Source: Candidatus Calditenuaceae archaeon
GTDB taxonomy: Archaea > Thermoproteota > Nitrososphaeria_A > Caldarchaeales > Calditenuaceae
Assembly (NCBI GenBank): GCA_025058225.1
Contig: JANXEE010000009.1
Location: 19,518-51,517 of the forward strand
Length of the DNA stretch: 32,000 nt
Direction: 5' to 3'
In this document: one piece after another, positions 1,478-28,294 of the stretch
Layout: each line of letters begins with the position of its first letter
Numbering within the stretch: the stretch's first letter is position 1
Notes under the pieces: generated by a model
Told to the model about the DNA's origin: nothing
What the model saw: only the letters and a program-made list of their open reading frames with translations
Databases searched by the model: none
Program-made: the position numbers and the translations under genes

Positions 1478-3130
1478 GTGGCACCAGCCCGACCCTTTAG
1501 CCCGTTCAATCGGGGCCCTGCTTCTGGCCGAGCCTTCAGCCCTCTTAACAGTAAAGCTAATATTAGGTCGGATTTGGGGGCTGAACAGTTGACCAAGCTC
1601 AACCTCGCTGAAGAGCTGATAGATAAATGGGTTGATCTCGGCCGGGACAGGGCTGAAGCTGTATTCGAGGTGAACGAGGGTGCCAACGGTTTCGGGGCTG
1701 TTACCTACCAGGGGCTGCAGGATTACACTTGTCGAATAGCGAGTTTCCTGAGGGATCTGAACGTGGGGTGGTTCAACAGGGTCGCGATTCTACTCTCCGA
1801 TAGTGTAGCGTGGATCGCCTCGTTCCTCGGAGCGGTAAGAATAGGGGCCGTACCGGTGATAATCTCACCGCTGAACAGGCCAGAGACTTGGAGTTTCATC
1901 GTGAGGGACTCGAGACCTAAGGTCCTAATAACCGACTCGAAGATCTTCAGGTCGTATCCTTGGACCAACAGCGGCCACTTTCCAAAAGCAACGGTGCTGG
2001 TCGACGAACCGCTCAACGGTCATCCTTCATTGAAGGAGGTGATGGAAGACTCAGCATCATTCTCGGAATTCGTCGAACCGGCCGATACGGTCGCTGACGA
2101 CTTCGCATTCATATTGTACACGTCGGGGTCGACAGCGGTCCCGAAGGGCGTCATGCACCTACAGCACGACCTCCCCGAAGCAGCCGATAGCCTATTCAGG
2201 GACGCACTCGGACTGTGCGAGGGTGACAGGTTCTATTCGGTCTCCAAACTCTATTTCAGCTTCGGCATGACCAACACGCTTTCAGCGTTGAGACTGGGAG
2301 CCTCCGCGATCGTGGACGGTGAGAGGTCGACACCTGAGAGGGTGCTTAGAGTTCTGAATCTCCTCGAACCGACGGCTGTGTTCGCAGCTGCGACAGTCTA
2401 CGCACGTCTGCTGGATAGAATTGATGAGAGAAATTCTTCAACCATCAAGAAGATCAAGGTACTGGTCTCAGGGGGGGAACACCTCCCTGAGAAAGTACAG
2501 CAGGCATGGTATGAGCGGTTCGGGAAGTCTCTTATAGACGGCATAGGATCTACCGAGTACCTCCACAAAGTCACCTTCAATGGACCCGGTTGCTTCAAGA
2601 GCGGAAGCCTCGGAAAACCGCTAAAATCACACGATGTCAAAATTGTCGATGAGGACTGGAACGAGCTGAAACCCGGTCAGGTGGGGAGGCTGGCCGTAAA
2701 GTGCGAGGCCTGTACTCCTCTGTATTGGCACAGATCCGATCTCAATAGGAAGGTCATAAGAGGAGGGTGGGTAATGCTTGATGACCTGTGCTACATCGAC
2801 GAGGAGGGATTCCTGTTTCACGTTGGGAGAGCCAACGAAATGATCAAGCAGGCTGGCATGTGGGTTTCCCCATTCGAAATAGAGGACGTATTAATGGGGC
2901 ATCCTGCTGTCTCCGAGGCCTTAGTCGTAAAGGCGACAGACGAGCGTGGATTGCACAGGGTCAGGGCACTCGTGGTTTTGAAGAAGAGCGTAGCGCCATC
3001 CTCTCAGCTCGCTCACGAACTGAAAGAATTCGTCAAATCTAAACTGGAACCATACAAGAGACCGGAATGGATAGAATTCGTTGAAGAACTACCGCTTACC
3101 GTCACCGGCAAAAGGAAACGAATATTGTAA
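1478..3130 (+). CDS. AMP-forming aromatic acid-CoA ligase (benzoate / 4-hydroxybenzoate-CoA ligase family)
   Basis: AMP-binding motif ILYTSGSTAVPKGVMH. Also DGIGSTE, and a C-terminal block GGWVMLDDLCYIDEEGFLFHVGRANEMIKQAGMWVSPFEIEDVLMGHPAVSEALVV...GKRKRIL that is collinear with benzoate-CoA ligases as I remember them. The first ~37 codons (MAPARPFSPFNRGPASGRAF...) look non-native. The true start is probably the in-frame TTG at 1589 (or 1574), about 25 nt downstream of a TATA-like box at 1553-1565. Confidence 0.85.
   Translation: MAPARPFSPFNRGPASGRAFSPLNSKANIRSDLGAEQLTKLNLAEELIDKWVDLGRDRAEAVFEVNEGANGFGAVTYQGLQDYTCRIASFLRDLNVGWFNRVAILLSDSVAWIASFLGAVRIGAVPVIISPLNRPETWSFIVRDSRPKVLITDSKIFRSYPWTNSGHFPKATVLVDEPLNGHPSLKEVMEDSASFSEFVEPADTVADDFAFILYTSGSTAVPKGVMHLQHDLPEAADSLFRDALGLCEGDRFYSVSKLYFSFGMTNTLSALRLGASAIVDGERSTPERVLRVLNLLEPTAVFAAATVYARLLDRIDERNSSTIKKIKVLVSGGEHLPEKVQQAWYERFGKSLIDGIGSTEYLHKVTFNGPGCFKSGSLGKPLKSHDVKIVDEDWNELKPGQVGRLAVKCEACTPLYWHRSDLNRKVIRGGWVMLDDLCYIDEEGFLFHVGRANEMIKQAGMWVSPFEIEDVLMGHPAVSEALVVKATDERGLHRVRALVVLKKSVAPSSQLAHELKEFVKSKLEPYKRPEWIEFVEELPLTVTGKRKRIL
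1553..1565 (+). promoter_or_regulatory. TATA-like box for the CoA-ligase gene
   Basis: aaagctaatatta lies about 25-35 nt upstream of the in-frame TTG at 1589, suggesting a leaderless or short-leader mRNA. Confidence 0.35.
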
Positions 3131-3193
3131 CGGATAGGCAAGGCGTTATACCCATCAGAGCTTCAATAAAAGAGCTCCTCAGAGCCCGAGTTG

Positions 3194-4198
3194 TCAGAGC
3201 CGGAGCAACCTTTCGGCATTCCTGTGCGTGATGTCCTCGATGGCGCCCTCGGGAAGACCGAGTGACACGAGTGATCTAATTATCTCGGCAACCCATCTCT
3301 CCCCATGATCAGGACCAAACGGAAAGTCGGTCGCGAAAAGGACGTGACTCGGTCCGAAGAATTCAATCCCGCATCGTAACGCAATAGCTGATCCCGAGAC
3401 CGCTGTGTCGGCATAAATAGACCTGAAGTAATCCAGTGGATGTCTTGCCAGCGGCCTTTCTAGAAATGTATGGCCTGCATATATTCGCGGATACTGAACA
3501 GCCTCATCGTAGAAGCCCCTGATCCTCTCCGCGAAGAAACTTATCATACCTCCGAGGTGGTGTGTTATTATCTTAACGTTGGGATAAGATTCTAGGATGC
3601 CGCTGAATACAAGCCTGCTGACTGCGACAGATGTGTCGAAAGGCCATCCGAGGGTCTGAGCGATGTTGTACTCATAGACCCACGGGTAGTATTGGAATTC
3701 AATCGGGTGGAGGAGTATAGGAACTCTCAGTCTCTCGACCTCAGCGAAGAAGTCCTTGAATTGGTCAAGCGGTCTGCCCTCAACATTGGTGTACACCTGA
3801 ACCGCTTTAACACCGAGGTCCCTGACAGCTCTTCTCAACTCCTCTATGAATTCACCCTCGAGACGTGGGAGAGTAGCAGCCGGAATCAGCCTGTCAGCGA
3901 ACCTCTCACACAGATCGGCGACGGTATCGTTAGCGAGCCTAGTCAGCCTAAGGGCTCTCCTTTCGCTCAGCCCTTCCCAGAGCTTAGATCCACCCGCAAG
4001 AGAAACGACCTGTTTCTCAATTCCGTGATTATCCATCATCATTAGCCTCACTTCAGGATCGGTAAAGTAACGGAACTCGTCCTCCACCTCTGCCTTCACG
4101 AACCTCACTAAGGCAGGGATACGAGTCCTGACATACTCCTGTAGGAACTCCCTTGGATAGATGTGGTTGAAAACGTCTATCAAGACGAGATCTTTCAC
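3194..4198 (-). CDS. amidohydrolase_2 (PF04909-type; ACMSD/LigW/LigI/LigJ superfamily) paralog 1
   Basis: GTG start. N-terminal LIDVFNHIYP aligns with the IDxHxHxxP metal motif. The mid-protein THHLGGMISFF and the C-terminal FATDFPFGP Asp motif are typical of the TIM-barrel decarboxylase/hydrolase family. Paralogous to the ORFs at 8036 and 14950. Confidence 0.85.
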   Translation of the reverse strand: MKDLVLIDVFNHIYPREFLQEYVRTRIPALVRFVKAEVEDEFRYFTDPEVRLMMMDNHGIEKQVVSLAGGSKLWEGLSERRALRLTRLANDTVADLCERFADRLIPAATLPRLEGEFIEELRRAVRDLGVKAVQVYTNVEGRPLDQFKDFFAEVERLRVPILLHPIEFQYYPWVYEYNIAQTLGWPFDTSVAVSRLVFSGILESYPNVKIITHHLGGMISFFAERIRGFYDEAVQYPRIYAGHTFLERPLARHPLDYFRSIYADTAVSGSAIALRCGIEFFGPSHVLFATDFPFGPDHGERWVAEIIRSLVSLGLPEGAIEDITHRNAERLLRL

Positions 4199-4220
4199 GC
4201 GATCGCCAAGATCACGGTTG

Positions 4221-4228
4221 TTATATAA
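4221..4228. promoter_or_regulatory. palindromic TATA box in a divergent promoter region
   Basis: TTATATAA (a perfect palindrome) lies 23-30 nt upstream of the minus-strand GTG at 4198. It sits in the 77-nt spacer shared with the Mo-enzyme gene. Confidence 0.45.
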
Positions 4229-4275
4229 ACCATGGAACTCATGAGCTGTTGGTTCGAAACAACGATTAATACAGA

Positions 4276-6699
4276 GTGGGGGCGCGGTGTGACCGGATAC
4301 CTTTGAGCACGAAATTAGTGGGTCGGGGGATCCTAAGGCGCGAGGACCTCAGGTTCGTTAAAGGACTGGGAAAATACGTGGCCGATCTGGCACCGGATGA
4401 CGCGCTACATGTTGCGCTTCTGCGATCGCCATTACCGCACGCCGTAATAAGGGGAGTGAGAGCCGATAGGGCCAGAGTCTCGCCGGGAGTGAGACTCGTC
4501 GTAACGGGGCCCGAACTTCCGAGACTGATGAGACCCTTCAGACACCTGATACCGACCCCACCTTATTATCCCATGGCCGTAGATAAGGTAAGGTTCGTGG
4601 GGGAACCCGTCGCCGCGGTCGTTGCGGAGAGCAGAACCCAGGCGGTCGATGCGCTGGAGCTTATAGAAGTTGATTATGAACCGCTGAGACCCGTCATCGA
4701 CCCCGATGAAGCCCTAGAGGGGAAATCGCCACTCGTTCACGAGGGTTTCACGAACAACATCGCCTGGACGGGTAACTACGTTTACGGTGATGTAGAAAGC
4801 GCCTTCAGGAGCGCAGACCTGATAGTGTCATCCAAGTTCGTAGTAAACAGGTTCAGCTCCACACCGATAGAACCGTCGGCTGTCCTGTCTTACTTCGACA
4901 GATCTTCCGGAGACCTCTACATCTACGATCAGAATCATCAGGCCCCGATGCACCATGCGAGATTAGCTGATGTCCTCAAGTTACCGCAGAACAAACTGGT
5001 CTACGCCGTCCCGGACGTGGGTGGTGGATTCGGAAATAAGGTGATGATCTACCCATACTCTGCCCTCATCGGTCTGCTTTCGATAATGGTAGACAGGCCT
5101 GTGATGTGGGTTGCTGACAGAAGGGAGGACATGGCGGCCCTGATGCAGACACCGATGAGGATCGCGACAGCGGAAGCGGCTGTTAGGTCAGACGGCAAGG
5201 TGTTAGGGTTACGAATCAAACTCATCGAAGACTTCGGAGCTCATATGAGACATCCTGAACCGCAAAACGTGACCAGACCATTCGCGTGCATGCTGGGTCC
5301 GTATGACATCGGCGCCATACGACTCGATGCAGTGGGCGTTTTCACCAACAAATCTCCCACAGGACCTAATAGGGCCTACGGCCGAACACATACGTTCTTC
5401 GTGCTTGAGAGGCTGATGGACATAATATCGAAGAGACTGGGCCTTGACCCTGTAGAGATCAGAATGAGGAACTTCATACCGACTGAGAGGATGCCCTATA
5501 CCAACCCGATCGGGTCGGTGTATGATGGAGGCAACTACCATGAAATGATGAGGATACTGCTCACGAAGTTCGATTACGAGGGTTGGAAAAGTAAGAGGGA
5601 AAAATTCTGGCAAGTAGGACGACCGGTAGGAATAGGAGTGGCGGCCATAATAGAACCGGCTGTTACTAACTCTCAGGTCGTATCTCTGTGGGGGTCAGAG
5701 ATAGGAAAGAGATATGCGGGGTCATCTGAAGCTGCTATGATAACGGTTTTCCCGACCGGTAAGGTAGAGGTTAGAATGGGAACCATCCCACAGGGTCAGG
5801 GACACGAAACGGTAGCCGCACAGGTGGTAGCTGAATTGCTCCAGATACCCATGGAAGACGTCAACGTCATTTCAGGCTTCAACTCTAGAACTCACCCCTA
5901 TAGCGGTGACTCAGGAACTTATGCAAGCAGGTTCTCGGTGATGGCAGTAGGAGCTATAACGGGAGCTGCCATCAAAATCAGGGAAAAGATGAAGAGAATC
6001 GCTGCCAACATTCTCGGAACCGATCCAGAACACATCTCTCTAACTGACGGAGAGTTCAGGGACGGCGTAACACAAAGCAGCGTCTCCTTCAGGGAGGTGT
6101 GCAGGGCTGCTTACAATCAGCTGGCCTTACTACCGGAGGGGATGGAGCCCGGACTTCATGCCGTCCATGTTCACAGGTTCGAATCCTCACCGGCGGACGA
6201 TAACAAGTCAGCTAACTTCGCGGTGACCTACTCGCCTGCGATGGCGGCAGCTGCCGTTGAGTTAGACCCCGAGACGTTCGAGGTGAAGGTACTGAGGCTG
6301 GTAATGATAGAGGACATAGGTACGATACTCAATCCCGTGATAGCTGAGGGGCAGGCACATGGTGCGATGGCTCACGGACTGGGAGCAGCGTTATACGAGC
6401 AGTATGTTTACGACCGATCTACGGGCCAGCTCCTCAGTTCAACATTTATCGACTACTTGGTACCTACAGCCCTCGAGATGCCCGAACTTGAGGTTCACCA
6501 CTACGTCACAAGGTCTCTCGTCACGGATTGGGGTTCTAGGGGAGGCCCTGGTGAGAGCGGAACCCCTCTTGTTGCGGTCACGATAGCAAACGCGATCTCC
6601 GATGCCCTTGATCCGCTAGGTGTGGACATCAACGAGATCCCTATCACCCCGTCCAAATTGTGGAGCCTGTCCAGAAACAGGGAAAGGGGTGCAATTTAG
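4276..6699 (+). CDS. xanthine oxidase / aldehyde oxidase family molybdopterin-binding large subunit (CoxL/CutA/HcrA-like hydroxylase)
   Basis: N-terminal VGRGILRREDLRFVKGLGKYVADL, the MoCo motif DVGGGFGNKV, and the C-terminal catalytic-Glu context GGPGESGTP. The active-site loop reads PNRAYGRTH (nt 5371-5385 = RAYGR). GTG start at 4276. An alternative in-frame TTG at 4303 sits about 30 nt downstream of gattaataca (4264-4273). Confidence 0.9.
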   Translation: MGARCDRIPLSTKLVGRGILRREDLRFVKGLGKYVADLAPDDALHVALLRSPLPHAVIRGVRADRARVSPGVRLVVTGPELPRLMRPFRHLIPTPPYYPMAVDKVRFVGEPVAAVVAESRTQAVDALELIEVDYEPLRPVIDPDEALEGKSPLVHEGFTNNIAWTGNYVYGDVESAFRSADLIVSSKFVVNRFSSTPIEPSAVLSYFDRSSGDLYIYDQNHQAPMHHARLADVLKLPQNKLVYAVPDVGGGFGNKVMIYPYSALIGLLSIMVDRPVMWVADRREDMAALMQTPMRIATAEAAVRSDGKVLGLRIKLIEDFGAHMRHPEPQNVTRPFACMLGPYDIGAIRLDAVGVFTNKSPTGPNRAYGRTHTFFVLERLMDIISKRLGLDPVEIRMRNFIPTERMPYTNPIGSVYDGGNYHEMMRILLTKFDYEGWKSKREKFWQVGRPVGIGVAAIIEPAVTNSQVVSLWGSEIGKRYAGSSEAAMITVFPTGKVEVRMGTIPQGQGHETVAAQVVAELLQIPMEDVNVISGFNSRTHPYSGDSGTYASRFSVMAVGAITGAAIKIREKMKRIAANILGTDPEHISLTDGEFRDGVTQSSVSFREVCRAAYNQLALLPEGMEPGLHAVHVHRFESSPADDNKSANFAVTYSPAMAAAAVELDPETFEVKVLRLVMIEDIGTILNPVIAEGQAHGAMAHGLGAALYEQYVYDRSTGQLLSSTFIDYLVPTALEMPELEVHHYVTRSLVTDWGSRGGPGESGTPLVAVTIANAISDALDPLGVDINEIPITPSKLWSLSRNRERGAI

Positions 6700-6707
6700 A
6701 CTGCCTC

Positions 6708-6714
6708 TTTTTTT
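6708..6714 (+). terminator. oligo-T tract (archaeal terminator-like)
   Basis: A run of seven T begins 9 nt after the Mo-enzyme TAG stop (6697-6699). Confidence 0.35.
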
Positions 6715-6762: not shown

Positions 6763-7896
6763 GTGAATAGAAGGCAGGCCATATCTAAGCTCAGTGCCGG
6801 TTTAATAGGTGCGACGATTACGGGCGTAAGCGGTTTCGTTGCCGGCAGTTATTTAGCACCATTCCAACAACCACGTCAGGTCCAACCGGAGTTGAGGGAG
6901 AGGACGGTCACGGTGGAACGGACGCTGGAGCGAACTTTGACCCAGACCGTCACCACCCAGCCCAGACTTGAGCCCGTGCCATTGAGGTTCGTAGCGACTG
7001 AGGGGGGCGTTACGACCGCACCCAACGCGTTGATGGCTAAGAATTTGCAGGATAGAGGCCCTCAGGTAGGTCTCAGGTTCGAATCGTTTAACGTCGTGAG
7101 GGGGACAGGTGAGGCTGTTAGGGAGCTTACAGACGGCAGGGCCGACGTCATTGGCCCGGTCTCAGTACTGTCGTTGATGGGTGCCATTGAGCGACAGCCC
7201 AACATCAGGATCTTCTATTTCAACGACTATGGAGCCTACGCCGGCATAGTAGTAGGACCCAACGTGCCCTATCGGTCTCTGGAGGACATGAGAAGAGCCA
7301 TTGAGCAAGGTCGGAAGATCAAGATCGCATTTACTAGACCCGGATCTCTCTCCCACTCCTACTCCATTCTCTTAGCTAGGTTGCTGGGCGTTGAATACGG
7401 AAGGGAGATCGAGGGGGTGTCGCTTGGCGAGGACGCCGCGATAATTGCGGCACTAGTAAGGGGAGATGTAGATGCTTACACTACTGCGAACATAATTCTA
7501 GGCTGGTCTTTAGAAGAAGAGGGCAGGGGTAGAGTGATTTTCTACTTCAGAGACCTCATTGGAACACAGTGGCATGAGCTCTCCTATGCGACAACTACTG
7601 AGGTCATGACCAGAAGTCGTGAAGCCATTAGGCGATTCGTAACCTACATACGGGAAACGACTAGAATCGCGATGTTAGACAAAGAGCTGACCGTCTCAAA
7701 CATGACAGCAGACCCACCGAGAGGACTCGGTGTGAAAAGGCCTGCCGCGGAAAGATACTACAGCTTTTACCTTCCGAACATGGTTGGCGCACCGGTCAGA
7801 GAGGCCCTCCAGCCAATGAGGGAGATAGCGGTGAACGCCGGTATAACTAGGAACCCTCCAGAGCCACAGCAACTGTACACAACCGAGTTCCTCTGA
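6763..7896 (+). CDS. ABC transporter substrate-binding protein, NMT1/SsuA/TauA-like (NitT/TauT family), paralog 1
   Basis: GTG start. Twin-arginine N-terminus MNRRQAISKL followed by the hydrophobic helix AGLIGATITGVSGFVAGSYLA, then a T/V/R/E-rich linker. The mature domain is collinear with the ORFs at 10725 and 11987 (shared blocks GRADVIGPV, KIFYF, RPGSLSH, EEEGRGR[IV]I[FY]YF, WHEL, RNPP.P.Q.YT..F). Confidence 0.85.
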   Translation: MNRRQAISKLSAGLIGATITGVSGFVAGSYLAPFQQPRQVQPELRERTVTVERTLERTLTQTVTTQPRLEPVPLRFVATEGGVTTAPNALMAKNLQDRGPQVGLRFESFNVVRGTGEAVRELTDGRADVIGPVSVLSLMGAIERQPNIRIFYFNDYGAYAGIVVGPNVPYRSLEDMRRAIEQGRKIKIAFTRPGSLSHSYSILLARLLGVEYGREIEGVSLGEDAAIIAALVRGDVDAYTTANIILGWSLEEEGRGRVIFYFRDLIGTQWHELSYATTTEVMTRSREAIRRFVTYIRETTRIAMLDKELTVSNMTADPPRGLGVKRPAAERYYSFYLPNMVGAPVREALQPMREIAVNAGITRNPPEPQQLYTTEFL

Positions 7897-8035: not shown

Positions 8036-9004
8036 GTGATAATCGATTCGTTCGCACACGTGCTTCCTAAGGACTTCGCTAAGGAGCTCCACACGACTTG
8101 GCCGTCACCTGAGTTGGCCAGTGTCTTTCAACTCGATTATTTCTGGGACCTGAACAAGAGAACCAAAGTCTTAGACAGTTTGAACATCGATGTACAGGTG
8201 GTCACGCTCGCGAGACCCGACATATGGTTAAGGGCCCCACCGAAATTAGCGAAGGAATTCGCAGTCAAGGCTAATGACGCCGTCGCCGAAACAGCGTCCA
8301 AGTCCCGAGGGAGGTTGGTGGGAGTGGGGACGATTCCAATAGTCTATCAGGGTGCAGTGGACGAGGTCAAGCGGTGCGTCGAGGAGCTCGGATTGAAGGG
8401 AATCCAGCTCTTCACACACTCCAACGGTCAGCCCATCGACTCTGTCGGTTACACGGAGATTTTCGAGTACGCTAACAATCGAGGTGTACCGATCTGGTTG
8501 CATCCCCAGACTTGGCCGCATCACGTCTGGTCCAATCAGTACGCGTTGGACAGGGTCCTAGGTTGGTTGTTTGAGACCTCGCTGGCAATGTGTAGATTGG
8601 TACTAGGCGGTATTTTGGACAGATTCCCAAACCTTAAGATCGTTACGCATCACCTGGGAGCCATGATGCCCTTCACGGACATAAGGCTGGAGGGTTTCTT
8701 CAGGACGATGACGATGTACCCCTATGCCGAGGCGAGGCAGCTGAGTGCACCCCCCGCACAGCTTCTCAGGAGGTTCTACGCTGACACCGTCGTGCTCAGC
8801 TCTTCTCACCACGCCTTTCTCTGCGGCCTCGAATTCTTCGGAAGTGACAGGGTTTTATTCGCAACCGACTATCCGTTCGGGCCCGAGGAAGGCACGTGGT
8901 GGGCGAGACACGTGATATCGACCATTAAAGGTGCCCCCATAGACGATGAGGTTCGCAGAAAGGTCTTAGGTGAGAACGCGCGCAGACTACTCGGTATAGC
9001 CTGA
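8036..9004 (+). CDS. amidohydrolase_2 superfamily enzyme, paralog 2
   Basis: MIIDSFAHVLPKDF..., VTHHLGAMMPF, LFATDYPFGPEEG. GTG start about 25 nt downstream of an A/T box at 8001-8015. Sits between a binding-protein gene and the permease genes. Confidence 0.85.
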   Translation: MIIDSFAHVLPKDFAKELHTTWPSPELASVFQLDYFWDLNKRTKVLDSLNIDVQVVTLARPDIWLRAPPKLAKEFAVKANDAVAETASKSRGRLVGVGTIPIVYQGAVDEVKRCVEELGLKGIQLFTHSNGQPIDSVGYTEIFEYANNRGVPIWLHPQTWPHHVWSNQYALDRVLGWLFETSLAMCRLVLGGILDRFPNLKIVTHHLGAMMPFTDIRLEGFFRTMTMYPYAEARQLSAPPAQLLRRFYADTVVLSSSHHAFLCGLEFFGSDRVLFATDYPFGPEEGTWWARHVISTIKGAPIDDEVRRKVLGENARRLLGIA

Positions 9005-9079: not shown

Positions 9080-9877
9080 ATGGACGTGCCGTTGGCTAGG
9101 AGGATTAAGGACGTCGCTCGGGCGGTCCTTCCCCATGTAGCATTCCTGACCATATTGTTCATAGCTGCAGACCAGCTGGTTCGGACAGGTTTGGTTAGTA
9201 GGTTCACGATACCTGCGTTTAATGACTTCCTGAACGCCCTATTGAATCTGCCGCGGAATCCCGACATGCCAGGGTCGTTCACGAACCACCTAATAATGAC
9301 CATCTACGAGCTGGGCGCAGCGGCCCTCATAGTCGTTGGTGTGGTTTTACCACTCGCACTGTTAATAGGGCTGAGGTACACAGCGCGGCGGGTGTTTGAA
9401 CCCTTGCTGCTGGCGTTCTTCGCCATCCCGTCAATAATCCTTTACCCGGTAATCTACTTGATACTGGGGATAGGACCGCCTTCAAAGATAGCCATGGGAG
9501 CGTTAGTTGGCTCAACGTACACTTTCATTTACGTCCTGAACGCCGTTAAACACTTCGATCAGTCACTGGTGAGGATGGCAAGCACCTTTACCACTTCGAG
9601 GTTCAAAATCCTCACTAAGGTGGCAATACCTTCCATAATCCCAATAATGGTATCGGCGATACAACTGGGCATATCCTACGCGATGGTCGGTGTGATAGTG
9701 GCCGAGGTCATCGCCTCCTCAACCGGATTAGGTTTCCTTATCTCGTGGTCAGAGACGACAATACGCGTGCCAGTGATGTATGCTACCATAGCTATTACAA
9801 TAATATTTGCGGCCGTTGTGTACGTGTCGCTTAAACTGTTCGAAAGGTGGGTCAGGGGGAGGATGAAGGAGATATGA
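9080..9877 (+). CDS. ABC transporter permease (TauC/SsuC-type binding-protein-dependent inner membrane component) 1
   Basis: Multi-helix hydrophobic protein. EAA-loop-like segment SLVRMASTFTTSRFKILTKVAIPSIIPIM. Its stop overlaps the next start (ATGA at 9874-9877). Confidence 0.85.
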   Translation: MDVPLARRIKDVARAVLPHVAFLTILFIAADQLVRTGLVSRFTIPAFNDFLNALLNLPRNPDMPGSFTNHLIMTIYELGAAALIVVGVVLPLALLIGLRYTARRVFEPLLLAFFAIPSIILYPVIYLILGIGPPSKIAMGALVGSTYTFIYVLNAVKHFDQSLVRMASTFTTSRFKILTKVAIPSIIPIMVSAIQLGISYAMVGVIVAEVIASSTGLGFLISWSETTIRVPVMYATIAITIIFAAVVYVSLKLFERWVRGRMKEI

Positions 9878-10671
9878 GGGTCACGGCCGGTACGAACAAG
9901 TTCATGGTCATTAACGGCTCCCGTGCAACTCTGATACTGACGTTCTTCGGTGCATGGGAATTACTAGTATCGTCAAAGATCTTGGATGAGTTCTTCATCC
10001 CTAGACCTTCCTCTGTTATTCAGAGGATAATTCAGATCGCCACCTCCGGCCAGTACCTCGATCAGATGCTAATCACCCTTTCGACGTTTTCTCTGGGTCT
10101 GCTGGCGGGCTCGCTGTTGGGCCTGTTGATGGGTTTCGTGATAGGAGGTGTGAAATACCTGCGGAACTTCATGATGGTTTACGTTCTACTCGTGGCTGCC
10201 ACGCCTAAAGTCCTGTTTTATCCGATCATCATCAAGATATTTGTCCAGCCGTTTTATTTCAAAATCGCCTTCGTTGCGCTCCATGCGTTCATCTTCGTAA
10301 CGATAGCGGTCGTTAGCGCGCTGCGTAACATGAACCCGGAGATCCTTAACATGTGCAAGACGTATGGCTGTTCAACACCGCTCAAGGTCTACAGGAAGAT
10401 CTTTTGGCCTTACGCTTTCTTCTCATTCCTAGCTGGTCTGAGAATGGCGACGATCTCTTCGTTCGTGGGCGCCGTTGTAGCCGACATGTTGATAGCGCCT
10501 GGGGTCGGCTATACCGTCAGGCTGTTAGCTTACAACTTCAAGGTCGTGGATGTCTACGCGGTGATCATACTCGTTGCGTTGTTCGCGATAACGATCAACT
10601 TCGTTTTGTTACGTGTCGAAGGCGCTGCGGGCAAAAGGCTAAGACTGGAGCTAGAGCAGGCTAGTCAATGA
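9874..10671 (+). CDS. ABC transporter permease 2
   Basis: The track ORF begins at GTG 9847, but the ATG at 9874 overlaps the upstream TGA (translational coupling). The product MRVTAGTNKFMVINGSRATLILTFFGAWELL... has an EAA-like loop, NMCKTYGCSTPLKVYRKIFWPYAFFSFLAGL. Confidence 0.8.
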   Translation: MRVTAGTNKFMVINGSRATLILTFFGAWELLVSSKILDEFFIPRPSSVIQRIIQIATSGQYLDQMLITLSTFSLGLLAGSLLGLLMGFVIGGVKYLRNFMMVYVLLVAATPKVLFYPIIIKIFVQPFYFKIAFVALHAFIFVTIAVVSALRNMNPEILNMCKTYGCSTPLKVYRKIFWPYAFFSFLAGLRMATISSFVGAVVADMLIAPGVGYTVRLLAYNFKVVDVYAVIILVALFAITINFVLLRVEGAAGKRLRLELEQASQ

Positions 10672-10692: not shown

Positions 10693-10703
10693 CATTTATA
10701 TTG
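10693..10703 (+). promoter_or_regulatory. TATA-like box for binding protein 2
   Basis: catttatattg lies 22-32 nt upstream of ATG 10725. Confidence 0.5.
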
Positions 10704-10724
10704 TATCTGTTTTTTGTAGGCGTC

Positions 10725-11876
10725 ATGAATGGAAGTACTGGGAAAAAGATAACAAGGAGACAGGCGATCGGCAGAACGGTTGCCGGGGTAGCTAGCGCGG
10801 CTGTTATCGCGGGTGTGGGCGGTTATCTCTTGGGGTCCTCAGCAGCAGTATCGGTTACGAGGACTGTAACAGCCCCTGGTGGAGCCCAGACCATCGTAGA
10901 GACCATGACCAGAACCGTGACCGGCACAACTACCGTAACCGCCACGCCGAGGCTCGAGCCACTAACGGTAAGGTTTACAAGCACGCAGGGTGGGCGAGGA
11001 ACTGCCTCAAACAGCTTGATCGCTGAGAACAAAAGAGATATCAGCGATAGATTGGCGCTGAGCATCCAATACAATGTGGTCGAGGGCACCGGCGCGGCCG
11101 TGAAAGAGCTGGTAGAGGGAAGAGCCGATGTGATAGGACCAGTTACGGTCGCTGGGCTGGCCGGGGCTATGGAGCAGAATCCCGACCTAAAGATATTTTA
11201 CTTCACCGACATCGGGGTTTACACGACGCTACTGGTCGGCCCCAACTCGCCCTACAACTCACTCTCCGACCTGCGGACCGCGATCTCACAGGGCAGGAAG
11301 ATCAAAATAGGTTATTCAAGACCCGGGTCACTCTCCCACACCTACACGGTGATGCTGGCCCACATCTTGGGCACCAGAGTGGGTGAAGGAATAGAGGGGG
11401 TAGCTCTCGGAGCGACCGACGCGATAATCGCGGCTGCGACGCGCGGCGAGATAGATGGGTTCCCGTGGACACCTGATGTGCACTGGAGGCTCGAAGAAGA
11501 GGGGAGAGGAAGGATAATTTACTATTTCAGCGAATATTTCGGCTCCAAGTGGCACGAGCTGAGCTTCGCCTCCACGAACACGATCATCCGCAATAGACCC
11601 GAACTGATCAAGAGGTTCGTAGATTACTGGAGGGAGGTGACCCGATACTATCTCATCAACAGGGACGAGGCGATAGGGTTGATGACTTCCCAACCCCCAA
11701 GAGGCTACGGTATGAGCAGGAACGTAGCAGAGCGGTACTATTCGACCTACATGCCGAACTACGTGGGAGCTCCCAACAGAGACGCTCTGGTGAACGTGGA
11801 TTACTTCGCTAAACTAAGCGGCGTGGCGAGGAACCCACCGCCTCCAGAGCAGTGGTACACGAGCCAGTTCATCTGA
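10725..11876 (+). CDS. ABC transporter substrate-binding protein, NMT1/SsuA-like, paralog 2
   Basis: The ATG at 10725 (track start is TTG 10701) lies about 25 nt downstream of catttatattg (10693-10703). Has an RR motif KKITRRQAIGRT, a TM helix and a TRTVT-repeat linker. Paralogous to 6763 and 11987. Confidence 0.85.
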   Translation: MNGSTGKKITRRQAIGRTVAGVASAAVIAGVGGYLLGSSAAVSVTRTVTAPGGAQTIVETMTRTVTGTTTVTATPRLEPLTVRFTSTQGGRGTASNSLIAENKRDISDRLALSIQYNVVEGTGAAVKELVEGRADVIGPVTVAGLAGAMEQNPDLKIFYFTDIGVYTTLLVGPNSPYNSLSDLRTAISQGRKIKIGYSRPGSLSHTYTVMLAHILGTRVGEGIEGVALGATDAIIAAATRGEIDGFPWTPDVHWRLEEEGRGRIIYYFSEYFGSKWHELSFASTNTIIRNRPELIKRFVDYWREVTRYYLINRDEAIGLMTSQPPRGYGMSRNVAERYYSTYMPNYVGAPNRDALVNVDYFAKLSGVARNPPPPEQWYTSQFI

Positions 11877-11884
11877 TTCTATAA

Positions 11885-11900
11885 CCTTTCTCTTTATTTT
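11885..11900 (+). terminator. T-rich tract after binding protein 2
   Basis: cctttctctttatttt begins 9 nt after TGA (11874-11876). Confidence 0.3.
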
Positions 11901-11952
11901 GGACATCGTCACCCGTAGAATAGAGCTGGCTATGGTTATTTGGGAGATGTGC

Positions 11953-11967
11953 AAATCTATATATACC
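11953..11967 (+). promoter_or_regulatory. TATA/BRE-like box for binding protein 3
   Basis: aaatctatatatacc lies 20-34 nt upstream of ATG 11987. Confidence 0.55.
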
Positions 11968-11986
11968 GGTTCACTGCTAACATGAC

Positions 11987-13162
11987 ATGCCCGATTTTAC
12001 ATCACAAGGCCCCTCATATATCTCAAGACGCAAAGCTTTAGGGAAGATGCTAGCCGGGGTCGTCGGATCGGCGGTCGTGGCTGGTGCAGGAGGTTATGCT
12101 CTGGGACTCAACCTCGGAAGGGGAGAGCAGGTGATCACCGTCACGCAGCAGCGCGACATAGTGAGGCAGACTATGCTGACGACGGTCAGACATATGGTCA
12201 CTCAATCCGTGACACCGACCCTTCAGCCCATTAGAGTACGCCTGACCACGTCTCAGGGTGCTCTGGGTCTAGCACCCTATCAACTGATAGCGTATAAGGA
12301 CTTCAATGAGGGTCAGCAGATCGCCAAAAATGCAGGCCTCACTATAGAGGGATTCAACATCGTGAGAGGTGGTGGAGAGGTAATGAAAGACCTCCTAGAG
12401 GGAAGAGCTGATCTGGTACCTGGACTTGAGATCATGCAGGCTGCCTCCCAGATCGAACAAACGGGCGGGGCCGTTAAGATCTTCTATTTCTGCGAATATG
12501 GCAACTACTACTCATTAGTGGTCTCTCCGGACTCACAGTACAGATCGATCGATGATTTGAAGCGGACTGTGAGAGAGGGGAAGAGATTGAAAGTCGGTTT
12601 CTCAAGACCAGGCTCTTTGTCCAACGCCTATATCTACATACTCAGTAACATCCTCAATACTAGAATTGGTGAAGGAATAGAACCGGTGTCTTTAGGTGAG
12701 TTCGACGCCATAGCTGCAGCCCTTAGTAGGGGCGAGATCGATTGCTTCCCGTGGAGCGTCAGCAGGACTTGGGGTTTAGAGGAGCGTGGTAGAGGACGGA
12801 TTATCTTCTATTTCAGTGATTATCTGGGAAACAGGTGGCACGATTTGTGTATTGCAACCACTACCGACTACATGTCGAAGAATCAGGAGGCGATAAGACG
12901 ATTTGTGAATTACTGGAGAGAGCTGGTCAGAATCTGGCAGACCAACCCCGACCTGTCCATTTCGCTTCTGAAGGCTGAGCCACCGACTGGGATAGGTCTT
13001 ACCGACAGCTCCGCTAGAAGGTGGTACAGCACTCTCACCCCGAACCCAATAGGTGCACCACTCCGAGAGGCTTTGGTTGAAGTGGACAAGTACGCCAAAC
13101 TTATCGGTCTCACGAAGAACCCGCCACCTCCTGACCAGTGGTACACCACACAATTCCTTTAA
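11987..13162 (+). CDS. ABC transporter substrate-binding protein, NMT1/SsuA-like, paralog 3
   Basis: ATG preceded by aaatctatatatacc (11953-11967). Has the RR motif ISRRKALGKM, a TM helix and a T/V/Q-rich linker. Same conserved blocks as paralogs 1 and 2. Confidence 0.85.
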   Translation: MPDFTSQGPSYISRRKALGKMLAGVVGSAVVAGAGGYALGLNLGRGEQVITVTQQRDIVRQTMLTTVRHMVTQSVTPTLQPIRVRLTTSQGALGLAPYQLIAYKDFNEGQQIAKNAGLTIEGFNIVRGGGEVMKDLLEGRADLVPGLEIMQAASQIEQTGGAVKIFYFCEYGNYYSLVVSPDSQYRSIDDLKRTVREGKRLKVGFSRPGSLSNAYIYILSNILNTRIGEGIEPVSLGEFDAIAAALSRGEIDCFPWSVSRTWGLEERGRGRIIFYFSDYLGNRWHDLCIATTTDYMSKNQEAIRRFVNYWRELVRIWQTNPDLSISLLKAEPPTGIGLTDSSARRWYSTLTPNPIGAPLREALVEVDKYAKLIGLTKNPPPPDQWYTTQFL

Positions 13163-13242
13163 CGGAAGCTGTCCAACACCATCAAAGTCTTCACGGCTAA
13201 GGAAGGTTAGGATGAGAACTTTATTCTAGTGGTGAAGTAAGA

Positions 13243-13252
13243 CTTATATACC
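13243..13252 (+). promoter_or_regulatory. TATA-like box for the TPP enzyme / amidohydrolase 3 pair
   Basis: cttatatacc lies 28-37 nt upstream of ATG 13280. Confidence 0.5.
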
Positions 13253-13279
13253 AACCAACTTTGTCCGCCGCGAAAGAGA

Positions 13280-14944
13280 ATGCGTGGGTATGAAGCGTTC
13301 CTATCGACGCTAGAGGAATTGGACCTCACGACTATTTTCGGGAACCCGGGATCGACCGAGGTACCATGGCTCGACGAACTTCCTCGTTATGAGAAATTGA
13401 GGTTCGTTCTAACGCTCCACGAGTCCATCGCGGTTAACATGGCTGATGGATACGCCCAAGCTAGAAGAAGCCCATCAGTCGCATCGGTTCACGCCAGTCC
13501 TGGACTTCTTCACTCGCTGGGAGCCCTCTACAACGCCAAAATAGCAGGCTCACCAGTGATAGCAATCGCCGGACAGGTCGATAGCAGGATCCTCTCGCGA
13601 GATCCATTCTTGGCATCGGACATCGTCTCAGCCGCGAAGGGGTATGCGAAGTGGACGTGGGAGCTCAGGAGAGCAGATGAGATCAGATACGTGCTTAGGA
13701 GAGCTGCAAAGGTAGCGATGGATCCTCCCACTGGCCCCGTGATGATCTCGGTGCCGAAGGACATTCTCGATGAAGAGGTCAAGGAGAACTACCCCTTGCC
13801 GACTGATTACAGGAATATGCGTTCAGGCTTCGGTGGAGACGACAGGTCGATACAGAGGGCAGTCGAGTTGCTGTTGAAGGCGGAGAGCCCTGCAATGATA
13901 TGTGGTCCCGAAGTGAGGTGGTACGGCGCCGTTGACAAGTGCGTGAAGCTTGCGGAGTTGCTGGCTATGAAAGTGTATGACGACATAAGATATGGTGTTT
14001 ATTATCCCGTCAATCATCACTGCTATTTCGGATTTTTCACTAGAGAAGATTTGAAAAGTCATGATTTGATATTGGTAGTAGGGCAGAGGATGTTCTACGA
14101 AATTACTCGTGAACAGATACCGTTGGTTGGTGAAGGCGCCGAACTCATCCACATCACTTCGGACCCAATGGAGCTAGGTAAGAACTACGAGGCCTCGTGC
14201 TGCATATTCGGAGATTCAGCTACCGTTATGGAGAAACTGCTCGAGAGCTGTTCCAAGAGGTTATCGACTGAATCTGAAAAACTCGAAAATCGCAGGAAGT
14301 CTCTGGAAAACCATAAAAAGGAATTGCTGGAGTACAACAGGAAGGAATTAGAGGAATACTTCGATAGGAAGCCGGTCTCGGCGCACCGGGTGGTGAATGA
14401 GGTAAACAGAGTGTTCGGCGACGGCGACGAATTGAACGTAGTGGTTGAAGCCGTTACGTCGCAGCCGTTCATAAGGAGATTGATGAAGTCATTCAACGGC
14501 TACAACTATTTCGTCAATCCCGGAGCGACGCTGGGCTGGGGAGTTGCCGCCTCCGTTGGGGTAAAGCTTGCTGAAGAAGACAAAAAAGTCTTGTGCTTCT
14601 CTGGTGACGGGGCCTTCATGTATTATCCACAATCACTCTGGACGGCAGCGAGAGTCGGTGTAAAGGTGGTTGTGATAGTGATGAATAACAGAGCGTACAT
14701 GAATGACAAGTTACACATACAGAGCAGGAGAGGTACGTCATTTAGGGCTGGAGCCTATGATGCTGTTGAGATAAATAATCCACCAGTCACAATCGAGCAG
14801 ATAGCAAAGGGGATCGGATGCAACGCAGCAACAGTGAGAGATCCGGGCGAGCTTTCAACTGCACTTGAGCTGGCATCCTCCAGTAGCTCCTCGTTCGTCG
14901 TTGACGTGCACATAGACCCTAGTATTGTGGATCGGAGGCGTTGA
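13280..14944 (+). CDS. thiamine-diphosphate-dependent decarboxylase, benzoylformate decarboxylase (MdlC)-like
   Basis: The N-terminus TTIFGNPGSTEVPWL...ADGYAQARRSP...AGQ... is collinear with Pseudomonas benzoylformate decarboxylase as I recall it. ThDP motif GDGAFMYYPQSLWTAARVGVKVVVIVMNNRAY. A K/E-rich, low-GC stretch (KRLSTESEKLENRRKSLENHKKELLEYNRKELEEYF, about nt 14255-14365) seems longer than the equivalent linker in BFD; this is a by-eye judgement. Confidence 0.8.
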   Translation: MRGYEAFLSTLEELDLTTIFGNPGSTEVPWLDELPRYEKLRFVLTLHESIAVNMADGYAQARRSPSVASVHASPGLLHSLGALYNAKIAGSPVIAIAGQVDSRILSRDPFLASDIVSAAKGYAKWTWELRRADEIRYVLRRAAKVAMDPPTGPVMISVPKDILDEEVKENYPLPTDYRNMRSGFGGDDRSIQRAVELLLKAESPAMICGPEVRWYGAVDKCVKLAELLAMKVYDDIRYGVYYPVNHHCYFGFFTREDLKSHDLILVVGQRMFYEITREQIPLVGEGAELIHITSDPMELGKNYEASCCIFGDSATVMEKLLESCSKRLSTESEKLENRRKSLENHKKELLEYNRKELEEYFDRKPVSAHRVVNEVNRVFGDGDELNVVVEAVTSQPFIRRLMKSFNGYNYFVNPGATLGWGVAASVGVKLAEEDKKVLCFSGDGAFMYYPQSLWTAARVGVKVVVIVMNNRAYMNDKLHIQSRRGTSFRAGAYDAVEINNPPVTIEQIAKGIGCNAATVRDPGELSTALELASSSSSSFVVDVHIDPSIVDRRR

Positions 14945-14949
14945 GTCGA

Positions 14950-15969
14950 ATGATCATAGACTCCTATACTCATATCACACCCATAAGATACTTGAAATCG
15001 CTTAGGGCGAGTGCGGGCGCAAGAGCCGAGGATGCCATTAGGAGGCTCGAGGACATCGGAACGCGATACAAACAATATTGGGACGTCGAAGCCAGAATCG
15101 AATTGCTGAAGAGGTATGGGATAGACATGCAGGCTGTATCGGTACATAATATCATCGATCCAAACTCATCTGGCCTCAGGGGTGAGAACCTGATAAAACT
15201 TTGCGCTTCAGTTAACGACGAAATCTCAGCGATTTGTGAGAGATCGAGGGGAGCCCTGATAGGTATCGGGGCTGCACCATTGTGGAGCATTGACGACGGT
15301 GGAGCTGATGAGATGAGGAGGGCTGTCGAGGATTTGGGCCTGAAGGGCTTCATGATACTGACCAACGTTGATGGCATCCCAGCCGATAAGTTCGGAAAGT
15401 TTTGGCAGGAAGCAGACAGGTTGTCGTGTGTCGTTCACCTCCACCCTGCAGACCCGAACGAATCTTCAGGTCGTGAATACGAGGACGAGTATGATATGAC
15501 ACACGTCTTCGGATGGCCTTTCGAGACCACTTTGATACTCACCAGGCTCGTCTTCTCGGGGACCTTGAAGAGGAACCCACGGGTGAGGGTGGTAAGCCAT
15601 CACGCAGGAGGTATGATACCCTTCTTCGCTGGCAGAATCAGCGAGTCGTATTCCGCTAAAACCGTGCAGATAAGACCTGATCAGACCTCTGACATCTTAG
15701 CGTCTGGAGACCCGTTCGACGACTTCCGGTCCGGGCAAATATACTACGATACTGCAGTTGGAGGTAACCCTCACGCAGTCAAATGCGCGATAAATGTCTT
15801 CGGACACGACAAGATGGTCTTCGCGACCGACTTCCCGTGGGGACCTAATGGAGGAATTCACAGACTTGAAAGGTATCCTAAGATAATATCGTCGTTAGAA
15901 CTCGAAGAGGATCAATTGGAGTGCGTTTTCTACAAAAACGCTTCGAAACTGTTTAGACTAAGTTTGTAA
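14950..15969 (+). CDS. amidohydrolase_2 superfamily enzyme, paralog 3
   Basis: The track ORF starts at TTG 14941. The ATG at 14950 gives MIIDSYTHITP, matching paralog 2 (MIIDSFAHVLP). Also VSHHAGGMIPFF and VFATDFPWGPNGG. The start lies 6 nt after the TPP-enzyme stop (14942-14944). Confidence 0.85.
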   Translation: MIIDSYTHITPIRYLKSLRASAGARAEDAIRRLEDIGTRYKQYWDVEARIELLKRYGIDMQAVSVHNIIDPNSSGLRGENLIKLCASVNDEISAICERSRGALIGIGAAPLWSIDDGGADEMRRAVEDLGLKGFMILTNVDGIPADKFGKFWQEADRLSCVVHLHPADPNESSGREYEDEYDMTHVFGWPFETTLILTRLVFSGTLKRNPRVRVVSHHAGGMIPFFAGRISESYSAKTVQIRPDQTSDILASGDPFDDFRSGQIYYDTAVGGNPHAVKCAINVFGHDKMVFATDFPWGPNGGIHRLERYPKIISSLELEEDQLECVFYKNASKLFRLSL

Positions 15970-28291: not shown

Positions 28292-28294
28292 CCT

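Follow-up and report, generated by a model that had tools for sequence, protein, structure and literature searches.

A run of eleven consecutive genes, hereafter the island, occupies positions 1478-15969 of a 32,000-nucleotide stretch of contig JANXEE010000009.1 (positions 19,518 to 51,517, forward strand; hereafter the window) from a Candidatus Calditenuaceae archaeon. The list of open reading frames (ORFs) of the window, together with Pfam and NCBIfam scans, was the basis for gene and family assignments, and gene calls on the identical contig L001 were used to revise the longest-ORF starts (contigs used for comparison carry L numbers throughout). The island encodes a putative aryl-CoA ligase, the large subunit of a molybdenum (Mo) enzyme, three amidohydrolases (AH1 to AH3), three substrate-binding proteins (SBP1 to SBP3), two permeases and an enzyme dependent on thiamin diphosphate (ThDP). 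All eleven ORFs of the initial annotation are present at the coordinates it gave, and Pfam and NCBIfam return the families it had named; its gene layout requires amendment in that AH1 lies on the minus strand and several genes probably start later (the Mo gene at 4318, permease 2 at 9874 and SBP2 at 10725). The proteins of the window are identical to database entries NZ957_01540 to about 01595, from a metagenome-assembled genome (MAG) labeled "Thaumarchaeota archaeon", and the nearest named genome is that of Candidatus Calditenuis fumarioli (Caldarchaeales, formerly Aigarchaeota; PMC10547907).

The GC content at third codon positions (GC3) is 0.57-0.67 in the island genes and 0.74-0.89 in the RNA polymerase, ribosomal-protein, SufBD, HisG and other genes of the same window. 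The region is thus a compositional island, its GC3 being lower than that of housekeeping genes in the same window. Because orthologous gene pairs also recur in related archaeal contigs (see below), the gene assembly is more than a product of chance. With slightly more confidence than doubt, we favor the reading that this compositionally distinct island of a thermophilic Caldarchaeales MAG takes up carboxylated aromatic or heteroaromatic compounds and carries out the first steps of their conversion.

The ligase gene (1478-3130, plus strand) encodes the Pfam domains AMP-binding and AMP-binding_C and belongs to the benzoate-CoA ligase family TIGR02262. The whole protein passes the cut-off of this model only marginally (376.6 bits against 375.25), while the orthologue in L028 (68% identity) passes it clearly (396.6 bits). 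The best PDB matches are an anthranilate-CoA ligase (4wv3, 5e-87) and a benzoate-CoA ligase (2v7b, 3e-84). Solved anthranilate- and benzoate-CoA ligases range from 5e-87 to 3e-73, followed by 4-hydroxybutyrate-CoA ligase at 1e-52 and acetyl-CoA synthetase at 4e-47, so that more than 30 orders of magnitude in E-value separate the top aryl-CoA ligases from every other solved ligase. The initial annotation had called the enzyme benzoate-CoA-ligase-like, and both the family model and the nearest solved relatives agree; a placement inside the fatty-acid ligases, which would have spoken against an aromatic substrate, was not found, aliphatic ligases matching at 1e-52 or more weakly. Judged by its sequence, the protein belongs in the aryl-CoA ligase clade, apart from fatty-acid ligases. 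The first 37 residues are unaligned and a TATA-like box lies upstream of TTG 1589, which is therefore probably the true start.

The ThDP enzyme (13280-14944, plus strand; three TPP domains in Pfam) most resembles benzoylformate decarboxylase (BFD). BFD is its best PDB match (1e-56, where glyoxylate carboligase reaches 1e-42 and acetolactate synthase 1e-33), and BFD also provides its best NCBIfam model, with 314 bits against at most 246 for acetolactate synthase models. Aligned to BFD, the enzyme keeps Ser26, Glu28, Glu47, His70 and the GDG...NN motif. Proteins with a BFD annotation are about 30% identical to it; the homologues comprise an orthologue at 62-63% (L009), the next two at 41% and 36%, and then many at about 30-35%. 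The family appears to be a deep branch of BFD-like enzymes, and its member in the island is best described as BFD-like, neither a demonstrated BFD nor an acetolactate synthase. The BFD-like assignment of the initial annotation is thus retained, and an acetolactate synthase identity, which that annotation had set as the alternative, is ruled out by the lead of BFD in both models and structures. A combination of sulfoacetaldehyde acetyltransferase (Xsc) with a taurine transporter was also considered and rejected: Xsc is not among the 25 best NCBIfam matches of the enzyme, and even the ThDP enzyme of L003 reaches only 65.7 bits against the Xsc model. Pfam scans detected no mandelate-pathway gene (racemase, mandelate dehydrogenase or benzaldehyde dehydrogenase) in the window; an MR_MLE gene was seen only beside a 34% identical bacterial homologue of the ThDP enzyme.

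The Mo large subunit (4276-6699, plus strand) is a member of the xanthine-oxidase family with the Pfam domains Ald_Xan_dh_C, MoCoBD_1 and MoCoBD_2. Its best PDB match is the mycobacterial CoxL (8uem, 2e-136), followed by quinoline 2-oxidoreductase (1t3q, 2e-120), the CO dehydrogenase large subunit CutL (1ffu, 3e-117) and 6-hydroxypseudooxynicotine dehydrogenase (7dqx, 7e-109); HcrA, the alpha subunit of 4-hydroxybenzoyl-CoA reductase, is a detectable relative (3e-74). The protein carries the hammerhead domain, two domains that bind the molybdenum cofactor and the catalytic Glu, with GPGESGT aligned to GIGESAT of CoxL, and is predicted to be a functional hydroxylase. Scores against CoxL-type NCBIfam models are 483-495 bits, where the cut-offs are 950-991, and at the active-site loop PNRA--YGRT stands in place of VAYACSFR, which in CO dehydrogenase includes the Cu-binding Cys. 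Because of this loop (VAY[RA]CSFR in form I CoxL), identity as a true aerobic CO dehydrogenase was rejected. Gene calls at the L028 orthologue and around the distant Mo subunits of L031 (34-36% identity) include no CoxS- or CoxM-type partner. Genes for a CoxE-like VWA protein (27140-28291, minus strand) and a MoxR/CoxD-like AAA ATPase (28295-29206, minus strand) lie 11 kb from the island. Proteins of these two kinds are typical maturation factors of Mo hydroxylases, and the pair at 27140-29206 could serve the orphan Mo subunit.

AH1 (3194-4198, minus strand; Pfam Amidohydro_2, 1.7e-29) is divergent from the Mo gene, AH2 (8036-9004, plus strand; 6.6e-34) lies downstream of SBP1, and the start of AH3 (14941-15969, plus strand; 1.1e-26) overlaps the stop codon of the ThDP gene by 4 nt. 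The three proteins score 94.7-118.4 bits against PF04909 (gathering cut-off 26.4) and are 30-36% identical to one another. Among solved structures, all three best match the ACMSD, LigW, gamma-resorcylate, 2,3-dihydroxybenzoate, salicylate and iso-orotate decarboxylases (1e-24 to 1e-31), and AH1 and AH2 are putative decarboxylases, non-oxidative in the case of AH1. The PDB matches of AH1 are 3ij6, gamma-resorcylate decarboxylase and ACMSD, and the best matches of AH2 are 5-carboxyvanillate decarboxylase (4icm, 1e-31) and ACMSD (5e-29). AH3 is closest to human ACMSD (1.4e-27) and keeps the equivalents of His174, His224, Arg235 and Asp291. Across the three paralogues and four orthologues, no substitution occurs at the beta5 His (LHP), the catalytic beta6 His, the beta8 Asp (ATD[FY]P) or the substrate-binding Arg; HH.GG and R232 (AH3 numbering; His224 and Arg235 of human ACMSD) are likewise found in 7/7 aligned sequences. 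The initial annotation had placed these enzymes in a superfamily that holds both such decarboxylases and the LigI/LigJ hydrolase and hydratase. The decarboxylase side (ACMSD, LigW, gamma-resorcylate, iso-orotate) stands, and LigI/LigJ-type roles were rejected as unlikely because no LigI or LigJ chain occurs among the PDB matches of the three proteins at E<=1e-3. The C-C hydrolase LigY is a weak match of AH3 (2.6e-08) and AH1 (2.4e-04). To our knowledge, no ACMSD-type decarboxylase has been characterized that works without a hydroxyl, enol or amino group adjacent to the carboxyl group or in conjugation with it.

SBP1 (6763-7896, plus strand; Pfam NMT1, 2e-08) is a membrane-anchored NMT1-like binding protein with a twin-arginine N-terminus. 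SBP2 (10701-11876, plus strand; weak Pfam and NCBIfam matches) and SBP3 (11987-13162, plus strand; Pfam NMT1, 2.3e-10) are NMT1-like proteins encoded in tandem. The three are 41-49% identical to one another, and their alignment shows an invariant RR followed by a hydrophobic helix (the anchor) and a Thr/Val-rich linker. The AlphaFold2 model of SBP2 has a core pLDDT (predicted local distance difference test) above 90, and Foldseek matches it to the folds of SsuA, TauA, ThiY, Thi5 and PqqT with a probability of 1.0 at 12-19% identity; the target-normalized TM score is 0.72-0.83 against SsuA, TauA and the Candida albicans CA3427 product (2x7p). The ligand cannot be deduced from the fold because these matches are generic at such identities. 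A sequence search with SBP3 against the PDB gave no meaningful match. A profile search of 1.84 billion cluster representatives returned six at E<=1e-30, after which values drop from 1e-31 to 1e-25 and below, into generic NMT1 proteins; the SBPs therefore form a very small distinct clade.

Permease 1 (9080-9877, plus strand) and permease 2 (9847-10671, plus strand; with the later start the two genes overlap by 4 nt) are BPD_transp_1 proteins that weakly match TauC, SsuC and SaoP in NCBIfam, and their orthologues in L003-L008, L017-L026, L028 and L037 are 54-74% identical. According to Pfam and NCBIfam, the cluster lacks an ABC (ATP-binding cassette) ATPase for this importer, a CoxS/CoxM-type iron-sulfur (FeS) or FAD subunit and a regulator, and the scans detected none in the remainder of the 32-kb window. 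The window's sole ABC ATPase is part of a transporter of the energy-coupling factor (ECF) type at 17811-20329 (minus strand), unrelated to the island importer and composed of a T component resembling CbiQ, a fused double ABC ATPase (427 aa) and a membrane component of the ABC_cobalt family. The MAG of the window (GCA_033581515.1) does encode an ATPase 72% identical to the SBP-linked ATPase of L003, at L032 8981-11986 and L033, divergent from the propeller paralogue P0284 in housekeeping surroundings; this is likely the best candidate for the unlinked ATPase of the importer.

The fold of the binding proteins bears on a different reading, in which the transporter would import a non-aromatic solute of the NitT/TauT kind, such as a sulfonate, a thiamin/pyrimidine precursor or a small 2-oxo or hydroxy acid, and the enzymes would act on aliphatic compounds or in cofactor salvage. 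The matches to SsuA, TauA, ThiY, Thi5 and a thiamin-binding protein fit this reading, as do a Haem_oxygenas_2/TENA-like gene beside the first SBP gene of L009, the description of Calditenuis as a thiamin auxotroph (PMC4681859) and the two unrelated kinds of ThDP enzyme that accompany the SBP clade. However, the SBPs reach only 29-33 bits against the NCBIfam model SsuA_fam (cut-off 163.5). Moreover, vitamin salvage would hardly call for three SBPs and three amidohydrolases of the decarboxylase type in addition to an aryl-CoA ligase and a Mo hydroxylase. The match to TENA is weak (E 0.0026), and the UbiD/UbiX, PaaK-like and HpaB neighbors in relatives are aromatic-acid enzymes. Thiamin or pyrimidine salvage was judged unlikely, and we regard import of any non-aromatic solute as improbable.

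The island importer has a further companion at the left edge of the window, where a gene on the minus strand (1-1387, start codon at 1387) is cut after the 5' two-thirds of a protein of 659 aa. Its translation is a tandem beta-propeller (NHL/SGL-like, cytoplasmic), and the full-length protein is P0279 (659 aa, 100% identical). The propeller is 80% identical to that of L037, which directly precedes the genes for permeases 1 and 2, 59% identical to propellers beside the SBP and permease genes of L003, L004 and L005, and 48% identical to that of L009. It is the most constant neighbor of the transporter across all arrangements seen, and the functional unit extends left of 1478 to include it. The AlphaFold2 model is a confident tandem propeller (pLDDT 91.4) for which Foldseek returned only generic tandem WD/YWTD propellers, and the sequence has no NCBIfam family and no PDB match. 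A lactonase or arylesterase role, suggested only by faint Pfam matches, was considered and set aside. The family is large, with 1,815 matches at E<=1e-10, and reaches into bacteria at 36-50% identity.

Other assemblies also contain the propeller. The bacterial lineage of L034-L036 has it with TonB receptors, a permease, a cupin, an aldehyde dehydrogenase and three Haem_oxygenas_2/TENA-like genes, and in L009 a gene of the latter kind (953-1918) lies between the propeller and the first SBP; the propeller and these heme-oxygenase-like, possibly di-iron, proteins may form a conserved association. In L031, from an Aigarchaeota MAG (GCA_025059745.1), the orthologue P0287 (54% identical to the propeller of the window) is followed by BKACE, isochorismatase-family, UbiD and F420-type luciferase-like genes, and the contig also carries two orphan Mo large subunits, a nitrilase-family gene and a major facilitator superfamily (MFS) transporter. 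Apparently a second and distinct set of catabolic genes has formed around this propeller.

A scan of the genome collection with the SBP alignment found only one locus, which is a lower bound since its degenerate patterns would miss the SBP1-type genes of L028. Two kinds of related loci account for the genes of the island and the propeller. In Ca. Calditenuis fumarioli (L009 and the near-identical L002), the order SBP2-SBP3-ThDP-AH3 is kept (70%, 62%, 63% and 66% identity), with AH3 directly after the ThDP gene and with an extra SBP paralogue of the clade ahead of SBP2. Then follow genes for an EamA transporter, a PaaK-like ligase, HpaB (TIGR02309, 288 bits), a flavin reductase and an ADP-forming acyl-CoA synthetase. 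In another Nitrososphaerota MAG (L028-L030 and L037), the propeller (80%) is accompanied by permease 1 (74%), permease 2 (74%), Mo (79%, on the opposite strand) and AH1 (78%, divergent from Mo). After these lie a classical NMT1 binding protein with permease and ATPase, UbiD, a second propeller, the ligase orthologue, UbiX and an isochorismatase-family gene, and the locus closes with SBP1 (66%) directly upstream of AH2 (75%), one more SBP of the clade and a third propeller. Phenylphosphate carboxylase beta is the best of the specific models for this UbiD (272 bits). Eight of these 12 genes (the propeller and seven of the eleven in the initial annotation) are found at the L028/L037-type locus and the other four at that of L009/L002, so that the assembly resembles two modules joined into one.

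The pairs AH1|Mo, SBP1-AH2 and ThDP-AH3 are conserved, at 62-79% identity, in relatives. The idea that each amidohydrolase has a different partner is therefore well founded, and synteny with relatives holds for the pairings and fails for the layout as a whole. Two further proposals of the initial annotation fared less well. It had envisaged an exact 3:3 match of uptake-plus-decarboxylation modules, but only SBP1-AH2 is one-to-one: the SBP2-SBP3 tandem precedes a single ThDP-AH3 pair, AH1 pairs with Mo, and the ratio of SBPs to amidohydrolases differs in relatives. It had also drawn a linear route from the ThDP enzyme through the Mo enzyme to the ligase; this makes chemical sense and fits the enzyme families but draws no support from synteny, since in relatives the ThDP module lies at another locus than Mo and ligase.

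Distant members of the SBP clade (51-64% identity), from hot-spring metagenomes, occur in several arrangements. One consists of a ThDP enzyme of a second kind (590 aa, PRK08327-like, 25% identical to that of the window), ATPase, SBP, permease 2, permease 1, propeller and DUF169, and ThDP enzymes of this second kind lie beside the SBP clade in L003, L017, L018 and L026. Another consists of SBP, permease, an AH3-like protein (45%), a PaaK-like ligase, UbiD (VdcC-like, 310 bits), UbiX and propeller. AH3-like genes (45-49%) are found beside SBPs in L021-L024, the PaaK-like ligase, UbiD and UbiX near SBPs of the clade in L019 and L024, and a Mo subunit (48%) adjoining an SBP of the clade in L020. 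Because these and the nearer loci carry UbiD/UbiX, PaaK-like ligases and HpaB/flavin reductase, they support a role in aromatic-acid metabolism, and of all the evidence this gene context is the most telling. A bacterial parallel is seen in L010-L012 (ENA metagenome contigs), where a 41% identical homologue of the ThDP enzyme lies between two classical NMT1 binding proteins; upstream are a Hydantoinase_B gene and an MFS transporter.

The same variety of arrangements could indicate that there is no single pathway: small modules, each acquired independently, would have gathered at one genomic hot spot without sharing a substrate stream. Modules indeed occupy separate loci and different orders in relatives, the island has an atypical GC3, and nearly every island gene is preceded by a TATA-like promoter region. 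DDE transposases of the insertion sequence (IS) type flank the SBP/AH modules of L019 (4241-4888) and L022 (1587-2471 and 5262-5822), which fits mobile or often rearranged modules. However, the SBP clade, permeases, propeller, AH, Mo, aryl ligases and ThDP enzymes re-assemble in at least five distinct arrangements, all three SBPs must share one permease pair, and the ThDP and AH3 genes overlap by 4 nt. Mere accretion is thus a very unlikely explanation.

We return to the reading that the island feeds carboxylated aromatic or heteroaromatic compounds into metabolism. From the family assignments, catalytic residues, gene pairings and composition we infer substrates, reaction order and reaction direction as follows. 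The island would consist of the sub-modules AH1|Mo, SBP1-AH2 and SBP2-SBP3-ThDP-AH3, together with the permease pair, the ligase and the tandem beta-propeller. The three membrane-anchored twin-arginine SBPs, from a small archaeal branch of NitT/TauT/NMT1-like proteins, would capture related but different substrates and deliver them to the one shared permease pair, powered by an ATPase encoded elsewhere in the genome. The three metal-dependent ACMSD-type amidohydrolases would remove, or reversibly add, carboxyl groups beside a ring hydroxyl or enol. The ThDP enzyme, translationally coupled to AH3, would decarboxylate a 2-oxo acid of the aryl-glyoxylate type to the aldehyde. The Mo enzyme, paired with AH1, would either hydroxylate a ring carbon ahead of decarboxylation or oxidize an aldehyde, and the ligase would activate the resulting aryl acid for a central pathway encoded elsewhere.

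For the AH1|Mo pair, hydroxylation followed by decarboxylation appears at least as good a reading as the linear route, because ACMSD-type decarboxylases need an activating group and because a Mo dehydrogenase precedes the decarboxylase PicC in the pic pathway (bioRxiv 10.1101/530550). This precedent raises a narrower version of the same reading, in which the substrates would be N-heteroaromatic carboxylates (picolinate, quinolinate, dipicolinate or nicotinate), the Mo enzyme hydroxylating next to the ring nitrogen and the neighboring ACMSD-type amidohydrolase decarboxylating the resulting hydroxy-pyridine carboxylate, in the manner of bacterial PicA, PicB and PicC. Besides the order of steps in the pic pathway, it draws on the closeness of the Mo subunit to quinoline 2-oxidoreductase and 6-hydroxypseudooxynicotine dehydrogenase, on the conservation of the divergent AH1|Mo pair, on the isochorismatase-family amidohydrolases of related loci and the nitrilase-superfamily gene beside the Mo subunits of L031, and on PicC being reported as an enzyme of amidohydrolase type (10.1101/457895). 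However, the top match of the Mo subunit is CoxL rather than an N-heterocycle hydroxylase, and the isochorismatase genes match only RutB and biuret amidohydrolase, weakly. The window also lacks homologues of 2,5-dihydroxypyridine dioxygenase, the deformylase, maleate isomerase and a PicB-type monooxygenase, and the ligase, the BFD-like enzyme and the HpaB/PaaK/UbiD neighbors point to benzenoid acids. Restriction to N-heteroaromatic substrates is thus unlikely.

The direction of the amidohydrolase reactions could also be reversed. In that case the amidohydrolases, and UbiD in the relatives, would mainly carboxylate imported phenolics to hydroxy-aryl acids in hot-spring water rich in CO2 and bicarbonate, and the ligase would activate the products, as in anaerobic phenol metabolism. 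A solved structure described as "thermophilic reversible gamma-resorcylate decarboxylase" (2dvt) is among the closest solved relatives of the amidohydrolases, and the phenylphosphate carboxylase affinity of the L028 UbiD, the presence of a benzoate-CoA-ligase-family enzyme and the relationship of the Mo subunit to HcrA point the same way. However, uptake of neutral phenols would not require an ABC importer whose binding proteins are of the carboxylate type, and HcrA is a far more distant relative of the Mo subunit than CoxL or Qor. In addition, the window contains neither a benzoyl-CoA reductase nor a Box system, and the lineage has been described as aerobic (PMC4681859). A mainly carboxylating role is therefore hard to credit.

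Several observations weigh against the island being a feeder of aromatic acids, or against parts of the scheme given above. Identity to every characterized enzyme is low, about 25-35%. The best NCBIfam model of the ThDP enzyme (PRK07092, BFD; NF005485) gives 314.3 bits, below its equivalog cut-off of 493, and the position of BFD His281 is occupied by Ile. In all three amidohydrolases, the N-terminal metal motif reads D-x-[FY]-x-H, with Phe or Tyr replacing the first His of HxH; this loss of the first ligand is shared with 3ij6, an uncharacterized Lactobacillus structural-genomics protein. The FeS (CoxS-type) and FAD (CoxM-type) partners of the Mo subunit were not found in the 32-kb window, and no NCBIfam model or PDB match separates aldehyde oxidation from ring hydroxylation for this subunit. 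The structurally nearest relatives of the SBPs bind sulfonates, taurine, pyrimidines, thiamin, pyrroloquinoline quinone (PQQ), nitrate or bicarbonate. No relative was found that keeps the whole 12-gene layout. The window also encodes no ring-cleaving, dearomatizing or CoA-ester-processing enzyme and no regulator; since no ring-cleaving or dearomatizing step is encoded in it, the island can be only a feeder.

A bolder form of the aromatic-carboxylate reading is that the island and its relatives represent an undescribed archaeal system for the stepwise removal of carboxyl groups from polycarboxylated aromatics or pyridines, with a new SBP clade and an obligatory propeller, into which different lineages would recruit decarboxylases of three classes with unrelated mechanisms (ThDP-dependent, metal-dependent amidohydrolase and prenyl-FMN-dependent UbiD). 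The substrates may then include benzene-polycarboxylates from thermally altered organic matter, dipicolinate or quinolinate, and the several SBPs and decarboxylases may reflect successive intermediates rather than unrelated substrates. This form is speculative, and we consider it rather improbable.

The 830 nt after AH3 (15970-16799) contain no convincing gene, the sole ORF being 104 aa on the minus strand without a Pfam match. This gap is partly AT-rich and forms, with an epimerase gene (16800-17645), the right edge of the low-GC3 region. Rfam and tRNA scans gave zero matches across the whole window, the gap included, and thus revealed no integration site. Elsewhere in the window are a protoglobin gene (29529-30122, minus strand) and, between a class-V aminotransferase and SufBD, an ORF of 292 aa without a Pfam family (24320-25198, minus strand).

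Aromatic-compound catabolism is poorly documented in thermophilic Caldarchaeales/Aigarchaeota. If the feeder reading is true, it offers a testable function for an orphan CoxL-like Mo subunit, for the deep BFD-like branch and for the [FY]xH subgroup of ACMSD-type amidohydrolases, of which one solved member was found (3ij6, deposited as uncharacterized). It would also define a new, very small clade of ABC binding proteins together with the widespread tandem beta-propeller family that travels with it, and provide a source of candidate thermostable (de)carboxylases.

Compared with known systems, the importer resembles the NitT/TauT importers SsuABC, TauABC, ThiXYZ and PqqT in the NMT1/SsuA fold of its SBPs and in its BPD_transp_1 permeases, but differs in having two permeases instead of one, three membrane-anchored SBPs, an unlinked ATPase and a propeller neighbor. 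The phthalate importers PatDABC and OphFGH are presumably of the same NitT/TauT class. Import of aromatic dicarboxylates by the ABC systems PatDABC and OphFGH has been described (PMC10973024).

The pathway from mandelate and benzoylformate through MdlC to a ligase of the BadA/BclA type shares with the island a ThDP enzyme nearest to BFD, a ligase that passes TIGR02262 and, in the Mo enzyme, a candidate aldehyde oxidizer. The island departs from it in the low identity of its ThDP enzyme to BFD (about 30%, with a score below the equivalog cut-off and Ile at His281), in lacking mandelate racemase and mandelate dehydrogenase, and in that a Mo enzyme would take the place of the NAD(P)-dependent dehydrogenase in oxidizing the aldehyde. 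The decarboxylases of the amidohydrolase superfamily are the best matches of AH1 to AH3, which keep their beta5 His, beta6 His, beta8 Asp and Arg. Unlike them, the island enzymes have Phe or Tyr for the first His (or Glu), none is orthologous to a characterized enzyme, and all are tied to ABC binding proteins, a Mo subunit or a ThDP enzyme.

In the furoate (Hmf) and 4-hydroxybenzoyl-CoA reductase pathways, an aryl-CoA ligase works with a xanthine-oxidase-family enzyme that acts on the CoA thioester. The island likewise combines an aryl-CoA ligase with a Mo subunit related to HcrA (3e-74), but this subunit is closer to CoxL and Qor, is paired with AH1 rather than with the ligase, and lacks small and medium subunits as well as a downstream hydratase or hydrolase. 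The conserved pair of Mo subunit and ACMSD-type enzyme is paralleled by PicA and PicC in the pic cluster of Alcaligenes faecalis (bioRxiv 10.1101/530550). The window lacks homologues of PicB, PicD, PicE, PicF and PicG, its Mo protein is a lone large subunit whereas PicA has three subunits, and the island is set apart by its archaeal host, its CoA ligase and its BFD-like enzyme.

A literature search found no description of this cluster. On this subject, the Caldarchaeales genome papers PMC4681859 and PMC10547907 report no more than a LigAB-type operon, a LigW gene found in C. fumarioli alone and numerous copies of CoxL, CoxM and CoxS, with CoxL paralogues left unassigned. Because its catalytic families are all already known, the island overturns no established concept. 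What is new compared with the systems above is the combination itself, the way its modules are rearranged from one thermophilic archaeon to another, the small SBP clade, the propeller partner and the association of orphan Mo subunits with decarboxylases.

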